A stretch of DNA of 61,675 bases from Flavobacteriales bacterium (GCA_040377305.1 JBEIPA010000030.1:1-61675); one strand, 5' to 3'; counted from the stretch's first letter, positions 10,353-61,675 are shown. The notes: a model not told the origin generated them from the sequence alone. Program-made: numbers and translations.

Positions 10353-10388
10353 TGCTTTACGTGGCGAGCTAAAATAAAACACAAATAG

Positions 10389-44703: not shown

Positions 44704-44734
44704 TTCGTGAAGTAAATCCAACGTTTCGTGAATT
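44704..44734 (+). promoter_or_regulatory. LytTR-type direct repeat upstream of the T9SS cargo gene
   Basis: TTCGTGAA at 44704 and 44725 (21 bp); CGTTTCGTGAATT shared with 43810-43822. Confidence 0.65.
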
Positions 44735-44789
44735 CTGAATGGCTTCTGACTTATCGAAGAATGATTTTTGTTTCCATAAATACTTCATC

Positions 44790-47156
44790 ATGAAAAGATC
44801 TATACTATTTCTGGTAGCAGTGTGTGCAGCCGTTTCAACATTCGCTCAGCAGAATTATTTGTGGGCGCAGAAAGTAGGAGGATCGGGCACAGAAATCGGT
44901 TACGGTATTACCACTGACGCCGCGGGAAATGTGTACACTGTCGGAACATTCATGGGCACCTGCGATTTTGATCCGGGTCCTGCAACGGAAAACTACACTT
45001 CGCTGGGTGCGGAAGATATTTTCGTCACCAAGTACGATGCAAATGGATTGTACCAATGGACTTTTAAGATTGGTGGCTCGGCAGGAGAAATAATTAATAC
45101 GATCCGTGTGAACGCGTCCGGTGACATTTTCATCGCAGGTGGTTTTCGTGGCACGGTCGACTTCAACCCAAGTGCAACAACCAACAATCTTGTTTCCACT
45201 GGAGGCATTGATATGTTCATTGCCAAATACAGTTCGACAGGAACTTACCAGTGGGCGAAGGCGATTAGTGGATCGCTGGATAACTACGCTTTGTCATTTG
45301 ACATAGACGCGGCAAGTAATATGTATGTAACGGGGCAGTTTCGCGGCACTGTTGATTTTGACCCGGGTTCCGGTGCACTGAATCTTATTGCAGTCGGTGG
45401 AAATCCGGATATGTTTGTGGCGAAGTACACATCAGCGGGAAATGCACTTTGGGCTTTTCAAGTAGGCAGTAGCGATTATGATTCAGGAAATTTTCTCCGC
45501 TGCACACCATCCGGTATGTTCTACGTCACCGGTTATGTCAATCAGGTTGTTGATTTTGATCCGCTCGCAGGTCCCGCAAGTTATACCTGCATTGGAGGTA
45601 CAGATGCGTACATCGCAAAGTACACCACCAATGGAAATCTGATGTGGATGAAGGCCATTGCAGGAACAGCGGATCAGTTCGGACGAAGTATTGATCTCGA
45701 TGCACAATCGAATCCCGTGGTGAGCGGCAATTTCAGAATGACTACTGATTTTGATCCGGGCGCTGGCGTGGTTAACCGTACGGCTACGGCTTCTACCGAC
45801 GGCTTCATTCTTCGTTTAGATTCAAACGGAACATTTCAGCACGTAATACACATTGCGGGTAATGGCGATGAAGATGTAACATCAATTTCTGTAGACGATG
45901 CAACCGGCACCGTACATGCAACAGGATCATTTGTGAACACAGCAGATTTTGATCCAGGCGCCGGCACATTGAACCTGATCAGTACATCCGTTACTTACGA
46001 CGCATTCAAAGCTTCGTATGATAACGCAGGCAACGTGCTTCAGGCATTTAAGATCGGCAGTGGTGGTCAGGACTACGGAAGAAATATTGTTGTGAATGCA
46101 CAAGGTGATTGTTTCATCACAGGCAATTTCAATGGCACGGCCGACTTCGATCCATCAGGTGCTTCGGCGAATCTCACAAGTTCGCAGGACGATGCATTCA
46201 TCGCGAAGTACGGTATATGCACGGCTCCGTCTGTGCCTTCACTCACTGCTGTAAGTTCAGCGATTTGTGCCGGAAGTTCAACGAACATTACTGCATCCGG
46301 ACAATTAAACAGTGCTGCCATTTGGGAGTGGCATACGGATAGTTGTGGTGGTGCGTCGGTTGGCAGCGGAACCACAATTACGGTTTCACCAACGACTACC
46401 ACAACATACTACGTGCGCGGTGAAGGAGGCTGTATCGGTAACAGTGGCTCCTGCGGAATGATTACAATTACCGTGAATCCGGTTCCGGTGGTAAGCATTA
46501 CAGGCAACCTGAATCTCTGTCCGGATGAAACAACCACGTTGAGTGCAAACGGAGCAATGACCTACAGCTGGTCGACAGGTTCCACCGCCACAAACGTTGT
46601 GCTGGGTACAGCTGATGCCGGTTCGATAATCGTTACCGGGACTGATACTTCAGGTTGTGTTTCGGGTGATACAGTTGTTTTGACTGCAACACTCATCGAC
46701 ACATCGGTTACACTCAATTTCGCAACACTCACTGCAACACAGAGCGGGGCAACTTATCAATGGGTCGATTGTGCAAATGGTTACGCACCTGTTGCGGGAG
46801 AAACAGCACAATCATTCACTCCAGCTGTAAACGGAATGTACGCATGCATTCTGAATCTTTCAGGATGTCCTGACACCAGCATGTGTTACGCCATGCTTTC
46901 TACTGAAGTGAGTAGCAGCAATCAGCAAACAAGCATTTCGCTCATGCCGAATCCTGCATCCACGTCACTGGTGATTTCAGATTTACATGGTCAAAACACC
47001 ATTGCAATTCTGAGCAGCGACGGAAAAAAAGTGCTTGAACAATACATTGCGTCTGCTTCATGTTCTGTCGACGTAAGCGGATTACCAGCAGGAATGTATG
47101 TTGTACTCGTACAAGAAAATACGGAAACTACATCGCTGCGATTCATAAAGGAATAA
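44790..47156 (+). CDS. SBBP-like beta-propeller repeat protein with Ig-like domains and T9SS C-terminal domain
   Basis: About 7 repeats of D..GN.Y.TG.F.GT.DFDPG...D.F.AKY; LMPNPA...GMYVV...RFIKE. Confidence 0.88.
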   Translation: MKRSILFLVAVCAAVSTFAQQNYLWAQKVGGSGTEIGYGITTDAAGNVYTVGTFMGTCDFDPGPATENYTSLGAEDIFVTKYDANGLYQWTFKIGGSAGEIINTIRVNASGDIFIAGGFRGTVDFNPSATTNNLVSTGGIDMFIAKYSSTGTYQWAKAISGSLDNYALSFDIDAASNMYVTGQFRGTVDFDPGSGALNLIAVGGNPDMFVAKYTSAGNALWAFQVGSSDYDSGNFLRCTPSGMFYVTGYVNQVVDFDPLAGPASYTCIGGTDAYIAKYTTNGNLMWMKAIAGTADQFGRSIDLDAQSNPVVSGNFRMTTDFDPGAGVVNRTATASTDGFILRLDSNGTFQHVIHIAGNGDEDVTSISVDDATGTVHATGSFVNTADFDPGAGTLNLISTSVTYDAFKASYDNAGNVLQAFKIGSGGQDYGRNIVVNAQGDCFITGNFNGTADFDPSGASANLTSSQDDAFIAKYGICTAPSVPSLTAVSSAICAGSSTNITASGQLNSAAIWEWHTDSCGGASVGSGTTITVSPTTTTTYYVRGEGGCIGNSGSCGMITITVNPVPVVSITGNLNLCPDETTTLSANGAMTYSWSTGSTATNVVLGTADAGSIIVTGTDTSGCVSGDTVVLTATLIDTSVTLNFATLTATQSGATYQWVDCANGYAPVAGETAQSFTPAVNGMYACILNLSGCPDTSMCYAMLSTEVSSSNQQTSISLMPNPASTSLVISDLHGQNTIAILSSDGKKVLEQYIASASCSVDVSGLPAGMYVVLVQENTETTSLRFIKE

Positions 47157-47175
47157 TTCTTCATTCATCGCGATT

Positions 47176-47214
47176 GAAAATCCTGCGGCAGTGATGCTGC
47201 AGGATTTTCTTTTT
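47176..47214 (+). terminator. Intrinsic terminator
   Basis: GAAAATCCTGCGGCA-GTGA-TGCTGCAGGATTTTC plus T4. Confidence 0.8.
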
Positions 47215-47373
47215 GAAATATCAATGCGGCTAAACTGTTTAGCCCGCAATCCGGATGTTCCGCTATTTCCCCATTACGTGCATGCATCGCGTCAACGTTG
47301 CTCAACTTCTGCATAATCTTCCTGTAAGCAATTCGCCTGAAGTGAATGGCAGAATATTTGAATTGAAGAGTAC

Positions 47374-47673
47374 GTGAAAAAATATTACTTCCTTCAACAT
47401 TTCATCGCCATCTTGTTTCTTTTTGCAGTAGCAGGTGCGCTCTCCTCGTGTACGGCAACATTCGGTGGTGCGCTCTTCGTGTTTGGATTTACTGACATTC
47501 TGCTTTACGCCATTCTCGCAATCGCACTTGCAGCGATCATTTCGTTTACCGCGCGCAGAGATCGTCGACGTTCAGCATTCTGGATCGGCTTGGTTCTTTC
47601 CCTATTACTCTCTCCACTCGCCGGAATTATCTATCTGGTGATTGTGTTTTCGCGACGAAGGAATAGGGAGTAG
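47374..47673 (+). CDS. Small membrane protein
   Basis: 99 aa, three hydrophobic segments, LSLLLSPLAGI, Arg-rich loops. Confidence 0.6.
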   Translation: MKKYYFLQHFIAILFLFAVAGALSSCTATFGGALFVFGFTDILLYAILAIALAAIISFTARRDRRRSAFWIGLVLSLLLSPLAGIIYLVIVFSRRRNRE

Positions 47674-48246
47674 GGCAGGATGTAAAGAAGATGCGGACTT
47701 GATCATTTGTGCTTCTTGAAATATCAAATCGGAACTGCTAAATCTCAAATGATAAGGAGCGCAACACTTGCTTTTCAAATTCACTTCGCTCCCGTGTTCG
47801 CTATCCGCCGCGGCGGAAGCGTCTCACCCGGGGCTAGGAATTTACTTTTGTATTTCAGATAATCGGGCACCTGCTCAAGGTAGAATTGTAAAAGCTGACT
47901 GTGTGAAGAAAGCAGGAGCAACTGGTCTTTTTGGGACAGGTAAAGCGGAAAAGATGTTCTCATTTTAAGAACTCCTTTTTTACTGATGCTCGTTCGGGTT
48001 ACGAAAACTTAATTGACATATACAAAACCAGGTAACGCGTGCGTCAGCCATTATTCTGACCAACACGGGAGCTATTCAAACGTGATTACACGGTGATGAG
48101 CGACTTGGATGTGTGCATTGAAACATTCTTTGAAAATTGATAATTCTGCTCAAAATGCATGATATAAATAATACTTAACAGTATTGCTATCGAAATTTTC
48201 GATAATATTGTCATTCACTCATTACTCAAACAAAATCCGCTAACCC

Positions 48247-48648
48247 ATGTCCAAAAAACACAAGCCCCTCGAGGAACATCCATCGTTTCCGGTTACTCTG
48301 CAATCAGCAATAGACAGTACTACCAACTGGCGTCAATGGATGAGCGATAATTCAGTGCCTGAAGAAATAAGAGTAAATGCTTTTTTTATCCCGGTCGGAG
48401 ATATTCTTGCACTGGCTCAACGTGATGATATTATTGGTGTAAGAGCTTATCTGGGACTCCCAGGCGAAGAAGCTGATATTTCAACACTGAAAATTCTGTT
48501 AGTACCAGTTGGGCCAAGTCCCACCCCTATTGATCCGGACAAAGGAGAGGATATTATCGAAGAGATTACCGGGACAGATCTTGTGACTATTTACGACTTT
48601 ACCAGTCCATGTCCGAATTTCTGCGCGGTCCATTCTCCGCTCATGTAA
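48247..48648 (+). CDS. Hypothetical protein with C-terminal DFTSPCPNFC motif, first gene of signalling cassette
   Basis: 133 aa, GVRAYLG, LLVPV, IYDFTSPCPNFC; no signal peptide. Confidence 0.8.
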   Translation: MSKKHKPLEEHPSFPVTLQSAIDSTTNWRQWMSDNSVPEEIRVNAFFIPVGDILALAQRDDIIGVRAYLGLPGEEADISTLKILLVPVGPSPTPIDPDKGEDIIEEITGTDLVTIYDFTSPCPNFCAVHSPLM

Positions 48649-48680
48649 ACCACCTGCAGTTTTCATCTCTTCCGTAGTCG

Positions 48681-49319
48681 ATGACCCAACTATTTGTTCA
48701 GTTCATCACACCGCTCTCAGTATTGCTGCCGATACTGATGGGTTTATATTATTACCGGTCCTTTCCGGAAGGACTTCGGATCATAGTATACTACCTCATA
48801 CTTTCATTTATTTTTAACGCAACTGCTGTTATACTTTCAAGGAGTCATCTGAATAATATGCCCTTGCTTCATGTGTTCACTGTAGTTGAGTTTGCGTGCT
48901 GTATATTGTTTTTTAAGCACGCGTTGGCTGATACCGGGTTCCCGAAATTCGCTTACATCTTGATCGGTGCTTTTACGGTTCTGAGCATATTAAATTCCTG
49001 TTTTCTGCAACCCATCAACTCTTTCAACAGCTACTCCCGATCTTTGGAAGCATTCCTGCTGATCATCCTTAGCCTGGTATTCCTTTACAAATCGTTAGGT
49101 GCGAAGATAGAAATAGCTGAAAAGAGCTTTGCCTTTTTGTGGATCTGCCTTGGATTCTTTTTCTATTTTTCCGGGTCGCTTTTCCTTTTTCTCTTTCCTG
49201 AATTCTCTCATGCAGAACCATGGGTTTACTATTTGGGCTGGATCGTTCACGCTTCACTGGTATTCCTGATGTACATTATCATCTCAATTGCCTTTTATCT
49301 ATCGCCTAAACCTGCATGA
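48681..49319 (+). CDS. About 7-TM membrane protein, probable split sensor domain
   Basis: Highly hydrophobic 212 aa; stop overlaps the kinase start (ATGA). Confidence 0.8.
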   Translation: MTQLFVQFITPLSVLLPILMGLYYYRSFPEGLRIIVYYLILSFIFNATAVILSRSHLNNMPLLHVFTVVEFACCILFFKHALADTGFPKFAYILIGAFTVLSILNSCFLQPINSFNSYSRSLEAFLLIILSLVFLYKSLGAKIEIAEKSFAFLWICLGFFFYFSGSLFLFLFPEFSHAEPWVYYLGWIVHASLVFLMYIIISIAFYLSPKPA

Positions 49320-50080
49320 ACAGTTATGAACTACTAGTAGCGGGTATGGTATTTTCATTGCTGATTGCATTTGCGGTCGTACTCTTTTATTTCCGTTACC
49401 GTCGTCACCTCACACAGCAACAACTTGAAATAAGTCGTGCCGAAATAATTCACCAGAAGGAACTGTTGCAGGCGGTGATACAATCGCAGGAAGAAGAAAG
49501 AAAACGTATCGGCATGAACCTGCACGACGAAGTGGGTTCTGCACTTTCTGCACTGCGTATGCTCACCGAACGTGATGATGTTATTTCCGGAGACAACCGC
49601 AACTGGGTGCCACAATGCAAAACAATCATTGACCGCGTAATCACCGACGTACGGAATATTTCACACGACCTTTCTCCGCTCCGCAGCGGTACGTATGATT
49701 TTATAGATGCATTGGATGATCTTTGCGAAGCGATCAATCTATCCGGTAAACTGCGCATCAATCTGAATGTAGCACAACACGATGAACTGAAAAAGATAAG
49801 CGACAGCAACGGCCTTGCATTATACAGGGTGCTCTCAGAACTCATCAGTAATACGATCAAACATTCCGGTGCTTCGTCTATCAGTATTGAGTTTTCACAG
49901 GAGCCCGGACACGTGAACATCGAATACAGGGATAATGGCACCGGACTTCTTAATATTCACGGACAAAAGAAAGGAATTGGATTCCGTAATATAGAAAGCA
50001 GGCTCAATGTTATCGGTGCCGTATTCACAATTGATGAAACGCCGGGCGGATTCGGAATGAAAATAAAAACAGCGATCTAG
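49316..50080 (+). CDS. Histidine kinase (HisKA_3) with single N-terminal TM and no sensor domain
   Basis: EEERKRIGMNLHDEVG, ELISNTIKHS, DNGTG, GIGFRNI. Confidence 0.93.
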   Translation: MNSYELLVAGMVFSLLIAFAVVLFYFRYRRHLTQQQLEISRAEIIHQKELLQAVIQSQEEERKRIGMNLHDEVGSALSALRMLTERDDVISGDNRNWVPQCKTIIDRVITDVRNISHDLSPLRSGTYDFIDALDDLCEAINLSGKLRINLNVAQHDELKKISDSNGLALYRVLSELISNTIKHSGASSISIEFSQEPGHVNIEYRDNGTGLLNIHGQKKGIGFRNIESRLNVIGAVFTIDETPGGFGMKIKTAI

Positions 50081-50089
50081 AAAACAGTC

Positions 50090-50755
50090 ATGGAAACTAT
50101 ACGTATCGGCATCGTTGATGATCAGAAACTGTTCCGCGAGGGGTTGGCCACGCTCATCTGCAGTGTACCGGAATTTGAACTGGTGATGGAAGCAGAAAAC
50201 GGACTGGACTGTCTCCGTGCTCTTGCCACAACTGACCCGTTGCCCCATGTTATTCTCATGGACATCGAAATGCCGGGCATGGATGGAACCGAACTGAATA
50301 TAAAAATTCACGAAGATTTTCCCGGCATCAATGTACTGGTAGTGTCGGTGCACAACCGCGAAAAGCTGATATCGAAAATGATAAGCGCGGGGGCCAGCGG
50401 ATACCTATCAAAAAATTGCAATAAAGAAGAACTGATTACCGCAATTCATGTTGTACACAAAAATGATTTCTACGTCAACAGCGCACTGCTGAAGTCTATT
50501 CAAGCCGGGTCCACCTCGAGAACCACTTCCGCAACCGGAAATTTCCATGAACCCGACCTTACTGTTCGGGAAAAAGAAATTCTCATCCTGATCTGTAAGG
50601 AATTCAACAATGCCGAAATAGCAGAACGTCTTTTCATTAGTATACGTACCGCGGAAGGTCACCGCAACAATCTCCTCGCCAAAACAGGTTGCCGCAATAC
50701 AGCAGGTCTTGTTCTGTATGCCGTAAAACATGGTTATTACGAGCTGCATTTTTAA
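50090..50755 (+). CDS. NarL/LuxR family response regulator
   Basis: IVDDQ, MDIEMP, LTVREKEIL...SIRTAEGHRNNLLAK. Confidence 0.95.
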   Translation: METIRIGIVDDQKLFREGLATLICSVPEFELVMEAENGLDCLRALATTDPLPHVILMDIEMPGMDGTELNIKIHEDFPGINVLVVSVHNREKLISKMISAGASGYLSKNCNKEELITAIHVVHKNDFYVNSALLKSIQAGSTSRTTSATGNFHEPDLTVREKEILILICKEFNNAEIAERLFISIRTAEGHRNNLLAKTGCRNTAGLVLYAVKHGYYELHF

Positions 50756-50799
50756 CCCGTTCCCCTTTTATTGGAATTTGCCGCCCTACCAGCGGGTAC

Positions 50800-50838
50800 C
50801 ACGTAGAACTACCTGATTCATAAATCACGTAGTTCTAC
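50800..50838. promoter_or_regulatory. Candidate response-regulator operator upstream of the RiPP precursor
   Basis: CACGTAGAACTAC (50800) and CACGTAGTTCTAC (50826); GTAGAACTAC and GTAGTTCTAC are reverse complements and each is quasi-palindromic. Confidence 0.55.
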
Positions 50839-50957
50839 TCTGTTATACCGTGCCTGTATAAATTTCCTTTGGGTAATCAAAGAAAGAAGCTTCTCATTGA
50901 TAACGGGGGATACCGAAAAGCCGTTTTAACAGAGTAGGTAAAAAAAACAAATCTATC

Positions 50958-51296
50958 ATGGGCTTAAACAAAACAAACGATTGTTGCTGGATTGTACTGG
51001 CAACTACAGGCTGTTCTACAGATGCAACTACTGCAAAATTATCTGCAGATGCAAAAGTGAACGCCGATTGCTGCTGGATTGTTCTTGGAACAACAGGTTG
51101 CAGCACAATTAACGTATCAGCTGCAGATTCGCTTCAGGCGAAAAATGCTGTTCCGGATGATTGTTGCTGGTATGTTGTCGCAACAACAGGATGTTCTGGC
51201 GACACTGTACAGAAGAATCTCGGTGCTGCTAAACCTGTTGCTGATGATTGCTGCTGGTACCTGCTTGCAACTACAGGTTGCACATTCAACCAGTAA
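50958..51296 (+). CDS. Multi-core RiPP (lanthipeptide-type) precursor with four DCCWxxxxTTGC[S/T] repeats
   Basis: Cores at 50979, 51066, 51159 and 51246; codons vary synonymously between repeats; in-frame TAA at 50901 limits N-terminal extension; directly upstream of modification genes. Confidence 0.88.
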   Translation: MGLNKTNDCCWIVLATTGCSTDATTAKLSADAKVNADCCWIVLGTTGCSTINVSAADSLQAKNAVPDDCCWYVVATTGCSGDTVQKNLGAAKPVADDCCWYLLATTGCTFNQ

Positions 51297-51304
51297 GCCA
51301 ACAA

Positions 51305-51345
51305 TAAGGGATGGAGAGTTGCGCTAACCAACTCTTCGTCCCTTA
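51305..51345 (+). promoter_or_regulatory. Stem-loop between precursor and modification genes
   Basis: TAAGGGATGGAGAGTTG / CAACTCTTCGTCCCTTA, 17-bp stem with two G:U pairs, no U-tract. Confidence 0.75.
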
Positions 51346-51359
51346 CAAAACCAAACGTC

Positions 51360-52472
51360 ATGAATCTATACACCGTTGATACCGCGCACTCACTTCTTCA
51401 GCAACAACAGCTCGTTGACGCTGAAGAAATCCTATTTGGAGATTACGAAGTCACCAGCACCAACCGGAGAAACAGGAACCTACAGGTGACCACACTTCAT
51501 AACGGTAATTTTCTGGTTAAGCAGGTCGCAGATAAAAAAGCAGAGAATGCGAAAACTGTTTGTACGGAAATCGCCCTATACCAGCATGTGAAAGAAAACC
51601 TTCCTCATCTTCACGCGTTGTTTCCTACGGTTCACTACACCAATATCGAAAATATTACTCTGGCGCTTGAATTTTACAAGGAAGCAACTCCGCTCTGGAA
51701 ATATTATAAAGAACGTACCATACATCAACTCCCTCTACGCACCATTAGCGCTGCAGGGAAACTGCTCGGAGAACTGCATCGTGTCTTTGCATACGACGGA
51801 ACCAACCCCGTTCCCTTTCTGACCACCGAGCTTCCGTTTGTGTTTAACCTGCACGAACCACACCCGCGCCTGCTGTCTTATTTACGTTCGGGAGGCTACC
51901 ACTTTATTGAGCAACTGCAGTCCGATGAAGCACTAATACACCTTTGGGATGTTGCGCGTGAAATGTGGCAGATCAATGCGCTCATTCACGGCGATGTAAA
52001 ACTCGACAACGTAATCGTTATTCCACGAGCCGGTGAAGAAGAAGCAACACACCTCAAACTTGTGGATTGGGAAATGGCTCAGTACGGCGACACAGCATGG
52101 GATGTTGCAGGTGCATTGCAGGATTTTATTTTCTGGTGGACCATCATGATGCCGAATGAAGATACCGCCGAAGCCATGATCAAAAAAGCCCCGTTTGGAT
52201 TTCAGGAACTGCAACCGGCGATAACCACTTACTGGCACTCGTACAGTGGCGTATCCGGCTTAAGCGACACGGCAAACGAAGAACTGCTGAGCAAGGCCAT
52301 TTTCTTTTCAGGCTTCAGGTGCATCCAGACTGCGTATGAAATTTCTTCAAAATTCGAACACGTTCCTCCCATCGCACAGGTGCTGTTCAATCTCGGAAAG
52401 AGTATTGTAAAAGATCCCGAAACCGCACGTCACAAACTTTTTGCCTTGTCACCTCAATTGTCAGTCCTATGA
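51360..52472 (+). CDS. APH-family phosphotransferase, LanK-like Ser/Thr kinase
   Basis: NRRNRN, FLVKQ, LIHGDVKLDN (catalytic loop), LVDWEMAQYGDTAWDVAG. Confidence 0.88.
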   Translation: MNLYTVDTAHSLLQQQQLVDAEEILFGDYEVTSTNRRNRNLQVTTLHNGNFLVKQVADKKAENAKTVCTEIALYQHVKENLPHLHALFPTVHYTNIENITLALEFYKEATPLWKYYKERTIHQLPLRTISAAGKLLGELHRVFAYDGTNPVPFLTTELPFVFNLHEPHPRLLSYLRSGGYHFIEQLQSDEALIHLWDVAREMWQINALIHGDVKLDNVIVIPRAGEEEATHLKLVDWEMAQYGDTAWDVAGALQDFIFWWTIMMPNEDTAEAMIKKAPFGFQELQPAITTYWHSYSGVSGLSDTANEELLSKAIFFSGFRCIQTAYEISSKFEHVPPIAQVLFNLGKSIVKDPETARHKLFALSPQLSVL

Positions 52473-53521
52473 TCAACCCTCAACTTCACCACGACATACG
52501 CCGGGTAATTGATGCCATCCGTTTCATTTCAGAAACCAGCTACAGCATCAATGGACTGAAGCGCGATATTGAAACCATCCGGATAAAAGATCCGCTCGGG
52601 AGTCTCAATGGGGCGACAACAGGTGCGGGCAAACTCAAAGAAAAATTCATAGCGGTACTGCTCACCGATATCTACAACAATTTATACACGGCAGATCACA
52701 GCGCGCCTCCAACCCTTGGATCGTACCTGCACAATGAATTTATTACAGAAGTTTCTGAAGGCAATAATGGAACAGGAAGCTGGGAAGAAGGATGGACACT
52801 GATCGGGCCCTCAAAACGCACAGGTAAGCTAATCGTCCGAAAAAATAATATGAAGTTCTGGGTGGAAGAAGAAAGAGTACGCGCTGAGAATTCAACAGGC
52901 GCAGAAACTACATATAGTGTGAAAGTGGAAAAAGAAACACGCTTCCTGAATTCGCACTTTTATTACGCATATGGTGACACCCATAAGACGGAAGTTACCG
53001 GTTACGCGGATCGCCCCTTGCGTTTTTACTGGAATCTCACACCACAGGGAGCTATTAACTATATCGCTTCCCTGACGAGAGAACTGAACAAACGAAAAAT
53101 TGCATTCAGAACAAAAATACTTTCCAGTCCCGCCGACTATTCGAGAACCGATTCCGGTGTACTCTATATTGATTCTTCCCAACTGGAGAGCGTGCTTCCG
53201 GCGATTGAAGCAGTATACGCCGATCTCCGGCCATTACTGAAATCATCTGTACCATTGTTTGTAAAACAGGTTTACCCTGGTGTGGGTTTTGCGGAAGATC
53301 CACGAAACGGTATGAGTTTCGGAATCAGCAGATCCTCTCTTATCGGCAATACGTTGTTCAGTTGCTTTGAGAAACAAATCACCGATCCTCAAATGATAGA
53401 AGGTGAAATGGTCTGCTCATTTATACAGGCAGGAATTTCAACATCGCACCCATATGCACAGGTGACAAAAATAAATGAGTACGAATCTATACTTCAAAAA
53501 CTGAACCCGTCATGGAACTAA
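52469..53521 (+). CDS. HopA1-domain protein, LanY-like phospho-Ser/Thr lyase
   Basis: N.G.G.WEEGW, RFYWNL, YSRTDSGVLY, PLFVK...GVGFAEDP...SFGISR; overlaps both neighbours. Confidence 0.82.
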   Translation: MINPQLHHDIRRVIDAIRFISETSYSINGLKRDIETIRIKDPLGSLNGATTGAGKLKEKFIAVLLTDIYNNLYTADHSAPPTLGSYLHNEFITEVSEGNNGTGSWEEGWTLIGPSKRTGKLIVRKNNMKFWVEEERVRAENSTGAETTYSVKVEKETRFLNSHFYYAYGDTHKTEVTGYADRPLRFYWNLTPQGAINYIASLTRELNKRKIAFRTKILSSPADYSRTDSGVLYIDSSQLESVLPAIEAVYADLRPLLKSSVPLFVKQVYPGVGFAEDPRNGMSFGISRSSLIGNTLFSCFEKQITDPQMIEGEMVCSFIQAGISTSHPYAQVTKINEYESILQKLNPSWN

Positions 53522-54816
53522 CGCAAACGATTTCAACCGTTGCAACCGATCTTTTTCTGGATGCCTCCATCCGCATAGGAGATGATCTTATAAAGACAGC
53601 GCACTGGGATAAAACAAGAACATATTGTAACTGGTTAGGGAGAAGAGATATCCTCGATCCGGAAATTGCACCTTACTCCGAAAGAACATCTGCAATGAGT
53701 CCTGAATTCTACAGCGGTTCTTCCGGCATTTCGTTTTTTCTCATGGAATTATACGGCGTTACGCTGAACCCTGCATACAGGAAAACTGCGCTTGCCGCCT
53801 GGTTGCGCTCAGTGGAATATTTACGTCGCAATGATTTTCCGGCTTCACCCATTTCCTTTTACGCAGGAGATCTTGGCCTGCTTTATATTGCACACCGGTT
53901 TACCGAAATTGACCCTTCACTTGCTGAACGGATGCAGGACGACATGGCTTACCTACTGAAGAAAACAGTATGCGGTCTTTCAGTAAACCATTCACTCGAC
54001 GTAATCGGTGGTAATGCAGGTGCAATTGCTCCTTTGTTCCGTCTTGCCGAAAAACACGGCTTGCGTGAGTGCGCACAAACTGCAATCGACTGCGCCGACG
54101 AAATCGTTAATCTAGCCGAATGGAAAGATGATATATGCTTCTGGGCTTCACCGAAAATTCACGGTGTTGAATTGGACAAGCCTCCACTCACCGGGTATTC
54201 CCACGGCTGTTCGGGAATTGCCAACGGATTGCTGGAAGCTTTTAAAGCAACCGGTGATGAGCGTTACCTCCACCATGCGCGCGGCGCATTTGCATTTGAA
54301 CATGCATTGTTTAACGATGATGAAAATAACTGGATCGACACACGCTACCCGCATGTGAAACGAAACGGTAAAATCACCGGCACATTCCGCTCTGCTTGGT
54401 GTCATGGTGCTCCGGGAAATGCGCTGGCACACATGAATGCCGCCACCATTGATGATGCACGGAAAGAATTTCACCTCGACATGGCAAAGCGTGCCATCAG
54501 CACCACACAAAAACAATTGATGGAGAAAATGGAGTATCCGGAAAAAGACGCCACACTTTGTCATGGAGTTCTGGGACTTTCCGATATTCTCTTCACCTGC
54601 GGAAACTACATGAATGATTCCGAAAGCCGCGAAATGGCAATTTTCATTTCTGAAAAATACCTGCGCCTGTTTCCTGTTGTGCGGAATATGCCGTCAGGAA
54701 TTGTCGCGGGTGGATTCAGTCCTTCATTACTCACAGGTTCTGCAGGAATCGGATTGCACTACCTGAGACTCGCATCGGAAAATCCGATACCATCTGTGCT
54801 GATGATTACGAAGTGA
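53512..54816 (+). CDS. lanC: Stand-alone LanC-like lanthionine cyclase
   Basis: Seven GxxG loops; GYSHG, AWCHG and LCHG match the NisC catalytic His and Zn ligands. Confidence 0.9.
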   Translation: MELTQTISTVATDLFLDASIRIGDDLIKTAHWDKTRTYCNWLGRRDILDPEIAPYSERTSAMSPEFYSGSSGISFFLMELYGVTLNPAYRKTALAAWLRSVEYLRRNDFPASPISFYAGDLGLLYIAHRFTEIDPSLAERMQDDMAYLLKKTVCGLSVNHSLDVIGGNAGAIAPLFRLAEKHGLRECAQTAIDCADEIVNLAEWKDDICFWASPKIHGVELDKPPLTGYSHGCSGIANGLLEAFKATGDERYLHHARGAFAFEHALFNDDENNWIDTRYPHVKRNGKITGTFRSAWCHGAPGNALAHMNAATIDDARKEFHLDMAKRAISTTQKQLMEKMEYPEKDATLCHGVLGLSDILFTCGNYMNDSESREMAIFISEKYLRLFPVVRNMPSGIVAGGFSPSLLTGSAGIGLHYLRLASENPIPSVLMITK

Positions 54817-54983
54817 TCTGTCGTTTACCTGTTGCTCTCGCGCACACCCCTTACTTCACGCGCGTTGATCATTGATGATAACTGCACCGCTAATATATCC
54901 GAACCCATATTATCAAGTTCCAATTGACCATTGACACAGCGCACGCGATAGTAGTAATTCTGCGCCACGATACGGTATAAACC

Positions 54984-55016
54984 AAAAAAGAGGCTATCAC
55001 TTATGACAGCCTCTTT
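54984..55016 (-). terminator. Intrinsic terminator for the 55038-58457 gene
   Basis: AAAAAAGAGGCTATCA-CTTA-TGACAGCCTCTTT. Confidence 0.75.
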
Positions 55017-55037
55017 GCGTTTGCCGCCTGGCTCTCT

Positions 55038-58000
55038 TTACATTTTTACAACACGATGCATGCCTGTATTTCCATTCGCAGTAATGCAGATGAAATAAAC
55101 ACCAACCGGCTCGTTCGTCAGATCAAGCGTAATGGTTTGTACCTGTTGTTTTTTTTCGCTTTGGATCAATTTTCCGTCAACGGAATAAATTTCAACGATC
55201 ACATCACTGTTTAATTCAGCAGTTGTGGTGATGTTGATTGCGCCGTTTGTTGGATTCGGGAACAGGTTCCACGATGTTGCAGTAGCTGCCTCAAAGCCCA
55301 TGCAGCCATCTACAAGGATGCTGTCGGTTGTGCTTCCGGTGCATCCGTTTATATCCGTGAATGTGTAAGTGATGTAATGCAGCCCTGTTCCGGCAGCAAA
55401 CGGATCGAATGTATTTCCGGAAACCGCAGTACCGCTGAAGGTTCCGCCCGATGGTGGTTCTCCGGAAAGATTAATTAATCCCGGGAAATCTCCGCACACA
55501 GTATCTATTGGCAATGCAAGTGTAACTGTTGGTGCGCCCGGATCATTGACAGAAGCGGTTGCGGTAGCTGTACATCCGTTTGCATCGGTAACGGTAACGC
55601 TGTAAGAGCCTGCACCAATTGCAGTGAGATCTTCGGTTACATCGCTGTTGCTCCAGAGGAATGAATAAACCATTGTTCCTCCTGTTACATCAATATCAAT
55701 AGATCCGTCTGTTCCGCTGCAGGTTGTCGGATTCACTGCATTGATGACTGAAGCAGACAGAACAGCTGGTTCGGCAACAGTAATTAACGTTGTGCTCGTA
55801 CAACCGTTAACATCCGTCACCGTGTAGGAATACGTTCCGGCAATTTCTGTAAATGTTCCTTCGCCGGTGTATGGTGCGGTTCCGCCAGCGCCCGTTACGG
55901 TTACTGTTGCTGCTCCACCGTTGCAAAGAATCGCTGTTGCGGATGAAGCCGCTGTAAGTGCTGTTGGTTCTGTAATGGTGATTGTCGTTGTGCTCGTACA
56001 ACCGTTAACATCCGTCACCGTGTAGGAATACGTTCCGGCAATTTCTGTAAATGTTCCTTCGCCGGTGTATGGTGCGGTTCCGCCAGCGCCCGTTACGGTT
56101 ACTGTTGCAGTTCCACCGTTGCAAAGAATCGCTGTTGACGATGAAGCAGACGTGAGCGCTGTTGGTTCTGTAACCGTGATCGACGTTGTGCTCGTGCAAC
56201 CGTTTGCGTCCGTAACAGGATATGAATAGTTCCCTGCGGTTACTGTAAATGTTCCCGCGCCTGAGTAAGGTGAAGTTCCTCCGGAGCCAGTCACCATCAC
56301 TGTTGCAGTTCCACCGTTACAAAGAATCGCTGTTGACGATGATGCAGATGTAAGCACTGTTGGTTCTGTTACGGTGATTGACGTTGTGGTTGTACAACCG
56401 TTCGCATCTGTCACAGGATATGAATAGTTACCTGCAGTTACTGTAAATGTTCCCGCGCCTGAGTAAGGTGAAGTGCCTCCGGAACCAGTCACCGTCACTG
56501 TTGCAGTTCCACCGTTGCAGGTAATGGACGTTGCCGAAGAAGATGAAGTCAGCACCGGCGGTTGTGTAATAGTAGCTGAAGCGGTGGTGGTACAGCCATT
56601 CACATCAGCGATGGTTACACTGTACGTTCCCGGTGCAAGGCCATTGATATCTTCGGTGGTTGCGCTGTTTGACCAGCTATAACTGTAACCGCCGGCACCA
56701 CCCGACATGGTCATGTTGATGGCTCCGTTCGAATTACCATTGCAGGAAACATTCGTAGCTGTAATGGCCGCGTAAAGAGGTGCAGGTGGCATGACCATTA
56801 CATTAGCCGTTGCAGAACATCCGGCCACGTCAGTTACTGTATAAGTGTACGCACCCATGCAGACTCCAGTGGCAATTTGCGTGATCATGCCATTGCTCCA
56901 TTGATAAGTATACGGACCGCTCCCACCGGAAACGACCGCAGTGAGTTGTCCGTCACACATCCCGTCGCAGGAGATAGGGAAACCATTGTAGTTGGAGGTA
57001 ATTGTTGCTGATGCGGTTAATGGTGCGGGTTGTGTTATGGTAAATGACCGGGAAGAAACACATCCGTTCGCGTCAGTCACGGTGCAATAATAGGTACCGG
57101 GTCCGATTGGTGTTGAAGTAGCTCCGTTACCGCCTGAAGGTGACCAGGAATAGGTGTAAGGTGCAGTTCCTCCTGTTGGAGTCATGGTCGCAGTGGTGGT
57201 TCCGCCGGTGCAAGGAAATGGGGCAACTGTTACGGAAGAAGAGAGTGTTGACGCATAGCTTACGGAGAACTGGGAACTGGAAGCGGTACACCCATTTGCA
57301 TCGGTAACTGTAACCGCATACGTGCCGGGATAAAGACCACTGATATCTTCGGTGGTATAACCGAATGACCAATCGTACGAGAACGGTCCGGTACCTCCTG
57401 TTACGGTAAGATTAATTGCTCCATCATTTGAGCTGCTGCAGGAAATGTGCGTAACGACAGCGGAAAATGAAATGGGTGCAGGCTGCGTAATGGTAACTGT
57501 TGCAACCGATGAAGCACATCCGTTGGAGACGGTGCAAGAGTATGTTCCTGCAGCAAGTCCTGTTGCAGTGGCACTACTTCCGCCTATTGGTGCCCAGCTA
57601 TACGTGAATGGACCAACACCGGTTGCTGTAACTGTTGCAGAACCATTGTTGCCTCCGTTGCACGAAATATGCGTAGTTGCAGAAATGCTGGTGGGGATCG
57701 CAGGTGTTGCCGATGATCCGGAAGTGACTCCGCCTGGAGCAAGCCAGTTGGAGTAGGTTCCGTTGAGCGCAAAGTTCTGAAGCGTACCGTTGCGGTTATT
57801 TCCACTTGCATCGGTAAGTGTGGTGATTCCCGCGTTGTTTGCTGCGGCAACGCCTTGATTGAAATGATAATCGGCTACAAGTCCATTGGAGAATGCAGGG
57901 GCTTCTCCCGTCATGCAACTGGTGATCTCCGATATGCAGAGCGCGCGGTTCCATATGCGCACCTCATCAATGCTTCCCAGGAAATGTTCTGGCCATGCTG

Positions 58001-58457
58001 CATCGGAGTGTCCGCCGATAGTGAACGGAAGTCCGGTGGAGCTGGTTTGCATTCCAAGTGCAACCGTTCCCACGTTCATACCGTTGAGATAAAAGACAGC
58101 ATTCGTTGAGCTCATCACGACAGCGAGGTGATACCATGTATTCGGGTTGATGTTCACAGGTAAAGCACTAAATGAAGCGCCGTTATAAAATCCGAGTTCG
58201 TTGTTATATTCATTCGTGTGAATGCTCCAGCGGGCGCCTGATGTATTGGTGCGCATAGCCAGCACGCAGGTATTCCCGAATGAAACATCGGAATTGAACC
58301 AACACTCCGCAGTGCCGGTTGTGAAATCAAATGCAGGATCTACGGGAATGCTCACGATATCATCGATGCCGTCGAAGTGGAGCGCAGCACCTGATTGTGC
58401 AACGCCCGGCAAACAAAGAGTTAGGGGCAGAAATAGTGTGATCAGTTTTTTTATCAT
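55038..58457 (-). CDS. T9SS-secreted adhesin-like protein: LamG domain plus SprB-like repeats
   Basis: ALHFDGIDD...WYHLAVV...GSIDEVRIWNRAL; many GGT.PY.Y.W...GTY..TVTDANGC repeats; LFPNPT...HRVVKM. Confidence 0.9.
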   Translation of the reverse strand: MIKKLITLFLPLTLCLPGVAQSGAALHFDGIDDIVSIPVDPAFDFTTGTAECWFNSDVSFGNTCVLAMRTNTSGARWSIHTNEYNNELGFYNGASFSALPVNINPNTWYHLAVVMSSTNAVFYLNGMNVGTVALGMQTSSTGLPFTIGGHSDAAWPEHFLGSIDEVRIWNRALCISEITSCMTGEAPAFSNGLVADYHFNQGVAAANNAGITTLTDASGNNRNGTLQNFALNGTYSNWLAPGGVTSGSSATPAIPTSISATTHISCNGGNNGSATVTATGVGPFTYSWAPIGGSSATATGLAAGTYSCTVSNGCASSVATVTITQPAPISFSAVVTHISCSSSNDGAINLTVTGGTGPFSYDWSFGYTTEDISGLYPGTYAVTVTDANGCTASSSQFSVSYASTLSSSVTVAPFPCTGGTTTATMTPTGGTAPYTYSWSPSGGNGATSTPIGPGTYYCTVTDANGCVSSRSFTITQPAPLTASATITSNYNGFPISCDGMCDGQLTAVVSGGSGPYTYQWSNGMITQIATGVCMGAYTYTVTDVAGCSATANVMVMPPAPLYAAITATNVSCNGNSNGAINMTMSGGAGGYSYSWSNSATTEDINGLAPGTYSVTIADVNGCTTTASATITQPPVLTSSSSATSITCNGGTATVTVTGSGGTSPYSGAGTFTVTAGNYSYPVTDANGCTTTTSITVTEPTVLTSASSSTAILCNGGTATVMVTGSGGTSPYSGAGTFTVTAGNYSYPVTDANGCTSTTSITVTEPTALTSASSSTAILCNGGTATVTVTGAGGTAPYTGEGTFTEIAGTYSYTVTDVNGCTSTTTITITEPTALTAASSATAILCNGGAATVTVTGAGGTAPYTGEGTFTEIAGTYSYTVTDVNGCTSTTLITVAEPAVLSASVINAVNPTTCSGTDGSIDIDVTGGTMVYSFLWSNSDVTEDLTAIGAGSYSVTVTDANGCTATATASVNDPGAPTVTLALPIDTVCGDFPGLINLSGEPPSGGTFSGTAVSGNTFDPFAAGTGLHYITYTFTDINGCTGSTTDSILVDGCMGFEAATATSWNLFPNPTNGAINITTTAELNSDVIVEIYSVDGKLIQSEKKQQVQTITLDLTNEPVGVYFICITANGNTGMHRVVKM
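55770..56560 (-). repeat. Four 198-bp intragenic tandem units in an A-A'-B-B' pattern (boundaries approximate)
   Basis: Near-identical blocks at 55791/55989 and 56221/56419, 198-bp period. Confidence 0.85.
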
Positions 58458-58530
58458 GGCATGAAGAATTTAGGTGATGCTTTCTGATACAAAAGAAAGG
58501 ATCAATAACGCCGACTTTGAAAAACGGGGG

Positions 58531-58560
58531 TGAACTGCACAACTTTGTAGCTGAACGGCA
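58531..58560 (-). promoter_or_regulatory. LytTR-type direct repeat upstream of the LamG/SprB gene
   Basis: Minus strand TGCCGTTCA and TGCAGTTCA, 21-bp spacing. Confidence 0.65.
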
Positions 58561-58637
58561 GTTGCATCTGAAAAAGGAACGCGAAATAAAACCCCACCTG
58601 TGGAGATGCGGTTTGTGAATTAATCAGCTGGTTTCAC

Positions 58638-59318
58638 TTACAGCTTGATCTGGTTGCCGCGAGATACGGGAATTTCAACTTCGCCAATGAAAACAGATTT
58701 CGAAGTTGCTTTGGTGATCTTCGTAATATTCACGACGGCCGAACGGTGTGTGCGATGAAACATTCCGCTGGGCGTGTGCTCGACCAACCAGTCGAGTGTG
58801 TAACGCAGGGTGTATTTTTTTGACGTGGTGTAAAGGTCAATGTAATTGTCATTGCTTTTGGCGTAGAGAATTTCATCGGCAGACAATTTCACCACGCTGT
58901 ATCCGTCTTTGAAGGAGAGATATTTTTCACTGTGCCTTTCTGCATTTTCTTCCACGAGGCGTATCGCCGCAAATACATCGGGTTGTTTGAATGGTTTGGT
59001 AATATAACCAGCCGGTTTTGTGCCGAGCGCTCTACTGATGATTTCCTTATCGGATTGTGCCGTGATATAGATGAAGGGAATTTTATACTCCTGGTTGATC
59101 CGTTCTGCGATCTGGATACCTTCCAGTTCTTCTTTCATGCGGATATCGAGTAATACCAGTTCAGGATGAAATTCCTCCAGCTGGATCATGGCCTGTCGTT
59201 TGTTGTGTGCCAGCGCAAGGTTCTGGTAACCGAGTCCGTTCAGTACATCTTTTAAATATTCTGCAATCAATACTTCGTCTTCTACGATGAGAATCTTAAA
59301 GGGGCTGTTTATTGGCAT
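58638..59318 (-). CDS. LytTR family response regulator
   Basis: IVEDE, LLDIRM, YITKPF, FHRTHRSAVVN. Confidence 0.93.
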   Translation of the reverse strand: MPINSPFKILIVEDEVLIAEYLKDVLNGLGYQNLALAHNKRQAMIQLEEFHPELVLLDIRMKEELEGIQIAERINQEYKIPFIYITAQSDKEIISRALGTKPAGYITKPFKQPDVFAAIRLVEENAERHSEKYLSFKDGYSVVKLSADEILYAKSNDNYIDLYTTSKKYTLRYTLDWLVEHTPSGMFHRTHRSAVVNITKITKATSKSVFIGEVEIPVSRGNQIKL

Positions 59319-61675
59319 GGTCGGGTATTTCGAATGAATAGGTCAGTCCATTTTCATTGATGATCGTATAACTCGCTTCCATCTGCCGCGAAAAAATATC
59401 GATGAGGCGTTGTCCGAGACCTTGTCCTTTCCTGTTTTCATTGATGCCGGAACCGTTATCGCTGATGGTATATTCGAAAAAGCTTTTTGCAGCAATGTAC
59501 TTCAACCGTATGCTGACGATGGGAAGGGGCGTTTTTTCAAAAGCATATTTGATTGAATTGCTCACCACCTCAGAAGTAATCATCCCAAGGGCTACGCTGT
59601 CATTCACATTAAATTTTATGTCATCAATATCCAGTTGGAAGGTGACCGGTGCTTCCTGATCGTATACCAGTTCTTTCAACTTTGCGATCAGTTCGTGCAG
59701 GTACTCTTTGATGTGAACAAACTCCAGTTTGTCTTTGTTATACAACATTTCATGCACCAGCGTCATGGAATTGATCCGGAGAGAGGTGTTTTTCAGCACC
59801 GCTTTGTTCTTTTCATCTTTCATCGAGTTGATCTGCATCTGCAGCATGGCTGCGATGAACTGCAGGTTGTTCTTTACACGATGATGCACTTCCTGCAGCA
59901 AGGCGGTTTGTTCGGCCAGTGATTCGCGCAGCTCCCTTGTCCGCTCGCTCACTGTGTCTTCCAGGCGTTCGTTTTCTATACTGATCTTGCGAATGCGGTA
60001 ACGGAAATACAGGAACACCAGCAGGATGATGAAAAGAACACCGCCGCTGATAAACCACCAGGAGAGATAGAATGGCGGCAACACACGCAGTTCTATCCGC
60101 AACGGCTTACTGCTCCATGTACCATCTGAATGCTGGGCGTTGACAACAAGTGTGTACGTTCCATAGGGCAGATTCGCGAGATTGATCTGTCCGTCGTACG
60201 AATAATTTTTCTTGTTGTCCAGTCCTTCAATCTCATAGACGTAAAGGTGCACGCGTGGCTGCAGGTCGAGCAGCAAAACAGATAAACTCAGATTCCTGCT
60301 TTCATCACTTAATTCAAGATAGTTGAGGTTACGGTACTCTTCGGAAACATCTTCTTGCTGATTGGTTGCCGCGTTGAACTTTTTCAGACTACGGATGATA
60401 AATGGATACTCCACGGAAGCTACTTGATCTGAGAACTGAAGCGGATCAAAATGAACGCAGCCGTCGATGGTACCGAACCAGAGATTTCCCTGCTCGTCTT
60501 TAAAACTCGAACTCCGGTTGAATTCCATGTGCTGGAGTCCATCTGCAGTGTTGTACACTCTTGCGCGCTTGTTGATTTTATCGAAGCACGCAAGACCGAA
60601 GTCTGTGCTGATCCAGAGTTTGCCGGACCGGTCTTCTTCGATGCGGCATAATTTCACGGACAGAAATCCTTCGTCGATACCAAAGTTTTCAAACGTGTTC
60701 GTCTTCTGGTCCCATCGGAACAGGCCTTCCTGCGGCGTGGCAAACCACCATGTGCCGTCCTTGTCGATATGCAGATCGTTGATCCCGCTGAAAGGTAGTT
60801 GATGACCCGGTTTCGCGTCCTTTCCAAAAAAGTCAATGATCTTCCCTTCCTTGCTGACTATATAAATTCCATTGTCAGCCACACATACAATCTGCTTCTG
60901 CGCATTTTCGAAAATTCTGTATACAAGAGCCGGCACAGGAAAAGTACCGTGATCGAGATGTTGAATGCTGTTGGAGGTTTGGTCGTAGATATCGAGATTC
61001 TTCGTGCAACCCAGTAGTATGCGTTTTCCTGACAACGGGAACATACTCCAGATCTCATCGCTGATCGATTGCGTTTTATAATTGAATTTCTCCGTTATAA
61101 AATCAAAAGTGTGCAGGTTGAAAGAACCGAGCCATAAAGTACTGTCGGCAAACAGGGAAGAATGGTTGTAATCGTTCGGAATGCGAAACGTTTTTCCGTT
61201 ATACGCGATGTTGATGTGCGTAAAAAGTGAGACGACAGAAAACCTGGCATTGGAAAATATGCCTCTGGCCGATTGATAGCCGGTTATCGTTTCCTGGGCG
61301 GCCGAATACAGCGGATGAAAATATTTTTCGGTAATACTAATTTTCAACAAGCCTTCCGTAGTGGCGAGCCAGTAATAACCGTACCTGTCGCGAAACAGGT
61401 GCAAAAGGGTGGCTCTTTGCAATGCATCTGAATCGGTTGAATCAATGATGCTGATCGCGCCGCGTTCCGGCGAGTAGAGCGAAATAAAATGACGGTCATT
61501 GATTTCAACTCCGTAAAAATTATTCGAATAGTTATTCGAAAGACGAAAGGTGTAATTTCCAAGTACACCTGTTTTATTCCCCAGCAAGCGGACATCACCG
61601 TTCATGCCGATGAAATAAAAATGAAAATGCCCGTTGTCGTCATTGCGGCCAATGACGTACCCGCTGGAATCACGG
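59296..61675 (-). CDS. Sensor histidine kinase (HisKA_2/HWE-like) with beta-propeller and Y_Y_Y domain, probably 5'-truncated by window end
   Basis: EVHHRVKNNLQ, EVVSNSIKYAF, DNGSG; propeller repeats; no signal peptide within the window. Confidence 0.88.
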   Translation of the reverse strand, partial: RDSSGYVIGRNDDNGHFHFYFIGMNGDVRLLGNKTGVLGNYTFRLSNNYSNNFYGVEINDRHFISLYSPERGAISIIDSTDSDALQRATLLHLFRDRYGYYWLATTEGLLKISITEKYFHPLYSAAQETITGYQSARGIFSNARFSVVSLFTHINIAYNGKTFRIPNDYNHSSLFADSTLWLGSFNLHTFDFITEKFNYKTQSISDEIWSMFPLSGKRILLGCTKNLDIYDQTSNSIQHLDHGTFPVPALVYRIFENAQKQIVCVADNGIYIVSKEGKIIDFFGKDAKPGHQLPFSGINDLHIDKDGTWWFATPQEGLFRWDQKTNTFENFGIDEGFLSVKLCRIEEDRSGKLWISTDFGLACFDKINKRARVYNTADGLQHMEFNRSSSFKDEQGNLWFGTIDGCVHFDPLQFSDQVASVEYPFIIRSLKKFNAATNQQEDVSEEYRNLNYLELSDESRNLSLSVLLLDLQPRVHLYVYEIEGLDNKKNYSYDGQINLANLPYGTYTLVVNAQHSDGTWSSKPLRIELRVLPPFYLSWWFISGGVLFIILLVFLYFRYRIRKISIENERLEDTVSERTRELRESLAEQTALLQEVHHRVKNNLQFIAAMLQMQINSMKDEKNKAVLKNTSLRINSMTLVHEMLYNKDKLEFVHIKEYLHELIAKLKELVYDQEAPVTFQLDIDDIKFNVNDSVALGMITSEVVSNSIKYAFEKTPLPIVSIRLKYIAAKSFFEYTISDNGSGINENRKGQGLGQRLIDIFSRQMEASYTIINENGLTYSFEIPDHANKQPL

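Follow-up and report, generated by a model that had tools for sequence, protein, structure and literature searches.

How do lanthipeptide-modifying enzymes find a substrate that offers them no leader? Such enzymes usually locate their substrate through a leader, and one product is made per precursor. The question is raised by a gene cluster in 61,675 nucleotides (nt) of DNA from a Flavobacteriales bacterium (GCA_040377305.1, JBEIPA010000030.1:1-61675; the whole stretch is called the window here). Its 112-amino-acid (aa) precursor departs from the typical plan of an N-terminal leader followed by one C-terminal core: just 8 residues precede the first Cys-Cys pair, and there are four cores. We consider it probable that this is a class Vb lanthipeptide cluster, in which a kinase and a lyase likely dehydrate the cores, a cyclase likely closes thioether rings, and the leaderless precursor would be recognised through its repeat unit. 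All four genes placed here by an earlier note on this DNA were found as open reading frames (ORFs) on the plus strand:

50958-51296, plus strand: precursor gene (LanA), 112-aa ORF
50979-51020, plus strand: core 1, including the preceding Asp
51066-51107, plus strand: core 2
51159-51200, plus strand: core 3
51246-51287, plus strand: core 4
51360-52472, plus strand: LanK-type Ser/Thr kinase with an APH fold, 370-aa ORF
52469-53521, plus strand: LanY-type phospho-Ser/Thr lyase of the HopA1 family, 350-aa ORF
53512-54816, plus strand: stand-alone zinc-type lanthionine cyclase (LanC), 434-aa ORF

The kinase and lyase ORFs overlap by 4 nt and the lyase and cyclase ORFs by 10 nt. The GC content of the cluster (0.45-0.48) is the same as that of the window, kinase, lyase and LanC occur once each in the 5.18-Mb genome, and positions 47500-55500 were free of indels and joints in the contigs of three DNA sequencing runs, the best of which may itself be the source of the window. 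No RNA run carrying the cluster was listed among the sequencing runs.

The Cys/Thr-rich cores that had been quoted from the peptide are present: four near-identical CCWxxx[AG]TTGC units begin at precursor residues 8, 37, 68, and 97. The pattern CC[WFY]xxx[AG]TTxC matched four times in a six-frame translation of the genome, always within the precursor gene, and residue shuffles of the precursor ORF yielded even a single core in 3 of 20,000 cases. Codon differences were mainly synonymous, both among the four cores (24 synonymous vs. 16 non-synonymous, with 35 of 59 base differences at third positions) and among 20 cores from five loci (962 vs. 406). Because divergence is mainly synonymous and shuffles rarely give cores, the cores are a genuine protein-coding repeat; the same synonymous divergence ruled out a DNA-level repeat. 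No signal peptide was seen in the 112-aa precursor, which has a calculated average mass of 11,470 Da once Met is removed.

The 12-residue core is also nearly invariant across phyla. We counted conservation over 65 Cys-Cys sites in 19 precursors, a set that leaves out P0001 (near-identical to the precursor of locus L001, below) and the cluster members P0008-P0010; W3 was conserved at 64 sites, T8 at 63, T9 at 64, C11 at 62, and S/T12 at 62. This conservation is partly built in, because the precursors were found by similarity to the core. A precursor profile search gave 15 matches, of which P0045, P0048, and P0049 were judged to lie outside the family and removed (P0048 for its 999-aa length), and protein searches gave further CCW precursors beyond the loci linked by DNA. 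Each precursor holds two to five cores, separated by Ala/Ser-rich linkers of variable sequence (about 9-35 residues, one of 86), and Asp stands at position -1 in 49 of 63 cores. In most chains the last Cys11 is followed by 2-4 further residues, which sets the C-terminal limit of the core. The C-termini of P0002 and P0004 have three standard cores followed by one divergent Cys/Thr-rich unit. The CCW core motif had no match in viral contigs, and a search of plasmids with P0039, one of the CCW precursors, gave no matches.

The kinase, lyase, and cyclase assignments made earlier from sequence were borne out by Pfam profile search, with all named motifs intact (kinase: APH, PF01636, 53.4 bits, cut-off 23.2; lyase: HopA1, PF17914, 118.3 bits, cut-off 22.7; cyclase: LANC_like, PF05147, 164.1 bits, cut-off 23.2); membership of 52469-53521 in HopA1 had been named as one of the points on which the proposal could fall. 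The kinase carries HGDVKLDN at residue 210 and DWE at residue 236. By sequence it had no match in the PDB, and its best NCBIfam match was LxmK (NF038156, 79.1 bits, under the equivalog cut-off of 315). The top three Foldseek matches of its AlphaFold model (predicted local distance difference test score, pLDDT, 94.7; 73-row alignment) were LxmK structures (9dk3, 9dk2, and 9dk1, chain A; template modelling score 0.73-0.74), ahead of methylthioribose kinase. The sole PDB match of the lyase at E ≤ 1 was the lexapeptide lyase chain 9dk1_B (E = 3.8e-6). Lyase residues R185, K216, R226, and Y233 align with R187, K219, R229, and Y236 of CaoY in the same order and spacing, R185, K216, and Y233 are invariant in 28 homologues, and mutation of CaoY R187, K219, or R229 is reported to impair elimination (PMC9486802). 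A type III effector role for this HopA1-family gene was rejected, since it sits between a kinase and a cyclase and matches the lexapeptide lyase. LanC is the sole LANC_like gene in the genome; it scored 224 bits against TIGR03897 over its C-terminal domain, under the cut-off of 304, and the LanM cyclase domain is its closest profile. Its motifs GYSHG, RSAWCHG, and LCHG begin at residues 228, 293, and 349. H231, C297, C350, and H351 are invariant in six aligned cyclases, and we take them to be the zinc ligands and catalytic His from the roles of these residues in known LanC enzymes. The minimal three-enzyme thioether route proposed in the earlier note is thus consistent with families, folds, and catalytic residues.

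By analogy with CaoK/CaoY, LxmK/LxmY, and SmoC, LanK would phosphorylate core Thr and Ser with ATP, LanY would eliminate phosphate to give dehydrobutyrine or dehydroalanine, and LanC would add core Cys thiols to form thioether rings. The three conserved Cys match three conserved Thr/Ser, which suggests three rings per core: Cys 1, 2, and 11 would pair with T8, T9, and S/T12, so that a core could hold as many as three rings and the whole chain as many as twelve. As to layout, a small T8-C11 ring with two overlapping staples from C1 and C2 to T9 and S/T12 is a guess in which we place little confidence.

The start of the chain carries the question of the leader. In the window, ATG 50958 is the first ATG, GTG, or TTG following an in-frame stop, and there is no room for an N-terminal leader in the precursor. 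The start-codon call is further supported by an element just upstream:

50903-50940, plus strand: DUF805b-like structured RNA whose end is about 18 nt short of the precursor ATG

The earlier note had described the repeats correctly and had overlooked both the absent leader and this RNA. Eight of the 19 precursors are leaderless, beginning 7-8 residues ahead of core 1 (first Cys-Cys at residue 8-9), and 11 bear extensions of 24-160 residues, all containing [FY][LI]xGx[ILVM] (FLxGxI-like). A slightly looser FLxGxI-like form was present in 7/7 ORFs for precursors or leaders at other, cyclase-containing kinase-lyase loci (plasmids of Deinococcus, Rhizobium, and Pseudonocardia, L126, L127, and L128, and four Bacteroidota loci; the cyclase is confirmed in six and deduced from ORF length in L138) and in 0/2 kinase-lyase loci without one. 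The segment is a putative leader recognition element. None of the leader-bearing CCW precursors is linked to its own enzymes by DNA, and L082 ends at the precursor.

Leader-domain and leader-motif profiles found nothing in the genome of the window (best E = 2.5 and 1.1). A leader fused to the kinase was considered for the longer kinase records P0069, P0075, P0081, and P0091 and rejected, as the extensions resemble early start calls and have no common motif. Because the precursor is without an N-terminal leader, recognition by the enzymes would have to rest on the repeat unit itself, and in the reading we prefer it would go through the hydrophobic CCWxxxA stretch of that unit. The bolder form of this reading is a natural leader-independent multi-core system, in which a class Vb branch has lost the leader, reads CCWxxxATTGC(S/T), and installs three rings on up to five copies, giving a tricyclic product that crosses phyla; we put this forward tentatively, at somewhat less than even chances. 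No leader-independent multi-core lanthipeptide of this type was found in the literature searched.

Several points weigh against the main reading as a whole. The kinase lies far under the LxmK cut-off and is 17% identical to LxmK, the leader motif was drawn up by eye from the very sequences in which it was counted, and four of the eight leaderless precursors (P0002, P0004, P0006, and P0042) lack accompanying DNA for a check of their starts. The L140 locus carries its leader-like motif in a separate ORF, and a divergent trans-acting leader may have been overlooked by our profiles. Linkers of leaderless precursors are somewhat richer in hydrophobic residues than those of leader-bearing ones (15% vs. 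9%) and might serve as internal leaders. The vicinal Cys-Cys could be a disulfide or metal site instead of contributing two rings. Finally, the cluster has no dedicated release or export genes, and the genome has no C39 peptidase.

If the linkers are degenerate internal leaders (L-x-A/G-x-x-x-V/A-x-D), the enzymes would show the usual leader dependence and core 1 alone would be poorly modified. In leaderless precursors, 14 of 18 linkers carry a hydrophobic residue at a distance of 6-11 positions ahead of the core, and the low-confidence fold prediction for the window precursor (mean pLDDT 47.5) places helices in the linkers, which is weak evidence in the same direction. The hydrophobic-residue test is, however, not specific, because 17 of 27 linkers of leader-bearing precursors pass it as well, and core 1 is conserved like the other cores despite having just 7-8 residues ahead of it. 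We consider internal leaders unlikely. It is unusual for a fully cyclised core to contain vicinal Cys-Cys, which would favour partial dehydration: Cys1-Cys2 would stay free or be joined as a disulfide, for use in metal or redox chemistry, and at most one lanthionine (T8-C11) would be made. This seems less credible still, given that each of the three Cys has a counterpart among three Thr/Ser conserved to the same degree, that a dedicated cyclase has been kept intact, and that the one characterised class Vb product is described as having three rings, two of them overlapping.

The missing release genes are relevant to whether the chain is cut at all. An uncut chain, with the enzymes and rings unchanged, would make the product a single 11-kDa polycyclic protein: four stapled hydrophobic modules joined by flexible linkers, which would act through avidity in the cell or at a membrane. 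No peptidase or transporter was found in the window cluster, in L001, in L069, or in three tabulated relatives (the Network 89 rows compared below), related Bacteroidota clusters carry repeat-rich substrates of 300-1152 aa, and some HopA1/LanC systems have been suggested to modify larger proteins (bioRxiv 2020.12.17.423248, in part). The variable number of cores and linker length are, on the other side, as in a polyprotein, the Asp at -1 is conserved, and many class III lanthipeptides are said in the same preprint to be freed by housekeeping proteases. On balance we doubt that the chain stays whole, while granting the idea some weight. Under the preferred reading, housekeeping proteases would release units of 12-14 residues at the Asp before Cys1, and, at a guess, the product would be a peptide for signalling or antagonism under the control of the neighbouring two-component system.

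We then asked how the cluster is distributed. A lyase search of GTDB contigs returned a sole locus, L001, in a Chitinophagaceae metagenome-assembled genome; although found by its lyase alone, it has a CCW peptide directly 5′ of its kinase, and its gene content is a kinase/regulator pair, a four-core precursor, a kinase, a lyase, and a cyclase. A motif scan of metagenomes gave at least 118 stretches and at least four true multi-core precursors (L004, L051, L069, and L082); the other stretches among the matches listed look like chance off-frame matches and were set aside. All three of these loci with downstream DNA (L004, L051, and L069) run from precursor to kinase to lyase, with the cyclase visible in L069. 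Close enzymes occur in Prolixibacteraceae, Aureispira, Lacinutrix, Hymenobacter, Gallionella, and Burkholderiales records. The earlier note had held that enzyme trios without a similar peptide nearby would count against it; close relatives keep the peptide beside the enzymes. That the cluster is inactive, or that the peptide is not the enzymes' substrate, is very improbable: reading frames and catalytic residues are intact, the cores show synonymous bias, and the same neighbourhood recurs across Bacteroidota and rhizobia.

The CCW lanthipeptide system is rare and patchy. Among 401 genomes of the phylum, only the genome of the window matched PF17914. Matches to the lyase profile came from 1 of 34 family relatives (where the kinase and lyase pair is distant and has no LanC; tallies over these 34 include genome G412), 2 of 401 genomes in the order of L001's genome (itself one of the two), 4 of 401 in one further family, and 1 of 351 in another. 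The extra matches are without the CCW core; their precursors are Cys/Thr-rich but of other kinds, and several are highly repetitive. A quick and unfinished tree of 53 kinases placed the five CCW-linked kinases in one 22-row group (Shimodaira-Hasegawa-like approximate likelihood ratio test, SH-aLRT, 98) and the kinases of repeat-rich Bacteroidota loci in a separate group (SH-aLRT 100).

Other kinase-lyase loci have precursors of different design. In a genome of the same genus, a 102-aa Thr-rich peptide accompanies an unrelated kinase-lyase pair that has no LanC in its vicinity (L123, G424:C9, 7587-10019). A repeat-rich precursor lies in a Bacteroidota locus:

L131 (G804:C14, a contig shared with G959), 10208-12115, minus strand: 635-aa class Vb-type precursor

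This precursor combines an N-terminal domain and a leader-like motif with Cys/Thr cores of 27 residues, present in about 13 near-identical copies. In L137 (G1210:C32, 9745-13203, minus strand; noted together with L136, G1037:C29, 9650-10552), the kinase, lyase, and LanC are preceded by a substrate-like protein of 1152 aa whose degenerate repeats contain 79 Cys; it is possibly a very large lanthionine-modified protein. In L140 (G1401:C10, minus strand), a leader-like domain (138 aa, 10562-10978) and a repeat-rich core region (313 aa, 9445-10386) are in ORFs separated by 175 nt; the split could reflect either a trans-acting leader that occurs naturally or an artefact of assembly. A shared N-terminal domain of about 100 residues precedes the leader-like motif in L126 (4078-4683), L137, L138 (5548-6033), L140, and P0039; its carriers include Deinococcus and Bacteroidota precursors as well as one CCW precursor. 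No Pfam family matched P0039, and the Deinococcus precursor is unannotated in its record.

Upstream of the precursor, and between it and the kinase gene, lie candidate control elements:

48247-49319, plus strand: 133-aa CPxxC-ending protein and 212-aa membrane protein, the front half of a regulatory module
49316-50080, plus strand: histidine kinase (Pfam)
50090-50755, plus strand: LuxR-type response regulator (Pfam)
50803-50838, no strand assigned: GTAG-NN-CTAC element pair, candidate regulator site or hairpin
51305-51345, plus strand: strong hairpin between the precursor and kinase genes (-25.8 kcal/mol, z = -6.9)

The DUF805b-like RNA of the window resembles Rfam DUF805b (RF02914) in sequence and in a hairpin upstream of a start, and differs in scoring below the gathering score (32.1 vs. 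35.6 bits, E = 1.4e-7). At the same position the RNA scored 30.1 bits in L001, 37.3 in L004, 35.6 in L069, and 47.0 in L131, and the element stands 18-30 nt ahead of the precursor ATG in all five; it was present in 4/4 leaderless-type loci with upstream DNA and was not found in L082, L137, L140, L126, L127, L138, L150, or L151. Two more copies in the genome (G000:C6:63300-63334, minus strand, and G000:C49:166035-166067, plus strand) lie about 20 nt ahead of genes for a 57-aa Cys-containing protein and a protein of about 160 aa. Because these other copies precede unrelated genes, the RNA is a general Bacteroidota 5′ element and is not specific to the cluster. Rfam classes DUF805b as cis-regulatory, and no paper on its function was found in the literature. 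The hairpin between the precursor and kinase genes was seen in all six loci folded (z = -2.6 to -6.9, against mononucleotide shuffles) and likely tunes precursor vs. enzyme transcript levels. The GTAG-NN-CTAC pair is the sole such pair among 14 single sites in the genome, and was not seen upstream of the L001, L004, L069, or L131 precursors; as a regulator site or hairpin it is a lead only. Promoter and terminator scans were at chance level (5 found vs. 7.1 expected and 6 vs. 4.1).

The adjacent two-component system is a candidate regulator of the cluster, and response regulators 56-59% identical to that of the window sit before the precursor in L001 and L131. The whole upstream four-gene module (48247-50755) recurs ahead of the L131 cluster, and in L151 (G408:C17, 7054-9623) it precedes a RebB (R-body) cluster. 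Because of the latter, the lanthipeptide genes look like swappable cargo behind the regulator. The module as a cluster-specific trait was rejected, being common in the family and preceding unrelated cargo in G408; its membrane protein has matches in 16 of the 34 family relatives, and LanY in 1. Neither this protein nor the small CPxxC protein matched a Pfam or NCBIfam family above cut-off.

Genes for type IX secretion system (T9SS)-secreted repeat proteins with PF18962 sorting domains flank the cluster on both sides (44739-47156, plus strand, and 55038-58457, minus strand, the latter with near-duplicate internal repeats), consistent with the Bacteroidota origin read earlier from the sequence. 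The taxonomy agrees as well, since the genome falls in one class with a family that has a genome in common with the order of a Chitinophagaceae metagenome-assembled genome. A Pfam scan of the window, which included 21 of the 31 long ORFs in 1-44000, showed, in the first half of the window, three radical S-adenosylmethionine genes (6980-8359, 11358-12812, and 28458-29960; one with a B12-binding domain), an MMPL transporter (25698-27977), and an MbnP-family gene (23284-24063); no test ties any of these to the lanthipeptide cluster. Neighbouring ORFs scanned around the cluster included no peptidase or ABC exporter, and the genome no C39-type exporter.

The family gives a natural comparison, with and without a leader, on one fixed core. 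Because it pairs leader-bearing and leaderless precursors, substrate recognition in class V becomes directly testable, and a 12-residue stapling motif free of a leader, if true, would be a useful tag for engineering cyclic peptides. The core is almost unchanged from Bacteroidota to rhizobia, which suggests one specific target. Cultured carriers are Lacinutrix jangbogonensis and two rhizobia, and Aureispira anguillae has a close kinase and lyase.

Among known systems, class Va (cacaoidin, lexapeptide, pristinin A3, triantimycins, and rosins) and the thioamitides share the split kinase-lyase dehydratase with the window, whose kinase model is closest to LxmK and whose lyase is closest to LxmK's partner chain in 9dk1. 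These systems differ, according to partial accounts, in needing LanD and LanX, in ending in aminovinyl-methyl-cysteine, and in having no LanC; the class Va leader is predicted to dock on the kinase. We rejected class Va for the window, since the cluster has no LanD gene (PF02441 matches are confined to contigs C22 and C49 of the genome) and no LanX, there is one kinase homologue in the genome, the C-terminal residue of the precursor is Gln, and LanC is present. Thioamitides were likewise rejected, as neither YcaO nor TfuA was found in any ORF of 44000-61675 or in those larger ORFs of the window that were scanned. CcaM of the dehydrazoles (PMC10676384) resembles our proposal as a Bacteroidota dehydratase of ribosomally made peptides that recognises the core; from the portions of that source covered, it differs in being LanM-type, in needing azoles, and in a precursor that keeps a long leader. 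The Bacteroidota clusters G804/L131, G1037/L136, G1210/L137, and G1401/L140 have the same gene order as the window, and in L131 the upstream four-gene module and the DUF805b RNA are present too; the four clusters differ in unrelated repeats and a separate kinase clade, and in a leader-like motif, which is in the precursor in L131 and L137 and in a separate ORF in L140.

Class Vb is described as LanK, LanY, and LanC without LanD or a methyltransferase, with mSmoA(C), made by SmoK/SmoY/SmoC, as its sole characterised member as of 2024 (PMC12291118, PMC11186320, PMC12328550, each in part). By gene content, motifs, and a precursor with clustered Cys/Ser/Thr, set against SmoA/K/Y/C by description, the window cluster appears to be class Vb: both have stand-alone LanK (PF01636), LanY (PF17914), and LanC, no LanD or LanX, and three potential rings per core, and the window cluster differs in four tandem cores and no leader. 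The claim of novelty in the earlier note survives in part. We found no characterised CCW family or multi-core class V precursor or product in the literature, judged mostly by title and start of abstract and with the original mSmoA(C) paper outside coverage. The three-enzyme class Vb route is already described, and the phylum is not new either, as HopA1 plus LanC clusters have been reported in Proteobacteria, some Bacteroidetes, and Actinobacteria (bioRxiv 2020.12.17.423248). Nor is the precursor family new, being already tabulated as Network 89 (Eyles et al. 2021, supplement, PMC8153245) for Lacinutrix jangbogonensis, Rhizobium sp. AC27/96, and Rhizobiales RZME27. The rows of that table resemble the window in four-core CCWIxxATTGC precursors that begin right before core 1 without a leader, 1.2-1.7 kb from a same-strand HopA1 gene. 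All three rows have HopA1, phosphotransferase, and LANC_like genes and list no peptidase, transporter, flavoprotein, methyltransferase, YcaO, or TfuA. Because the rows were picked by motif, they are uninformative on how often close enzymes lack the peptide. Network 89 differs in being an automatic table entry with no product described in the rows, and "network 89", "family 89", and "multiple core" are absent from the main text of PMC8153245 as far as it was available. The enzyme logic of the window cluster is thus known and its precursor family is tabulated but, as far as found, undescribed; the point of interest is the leaderless multi-core precursor.

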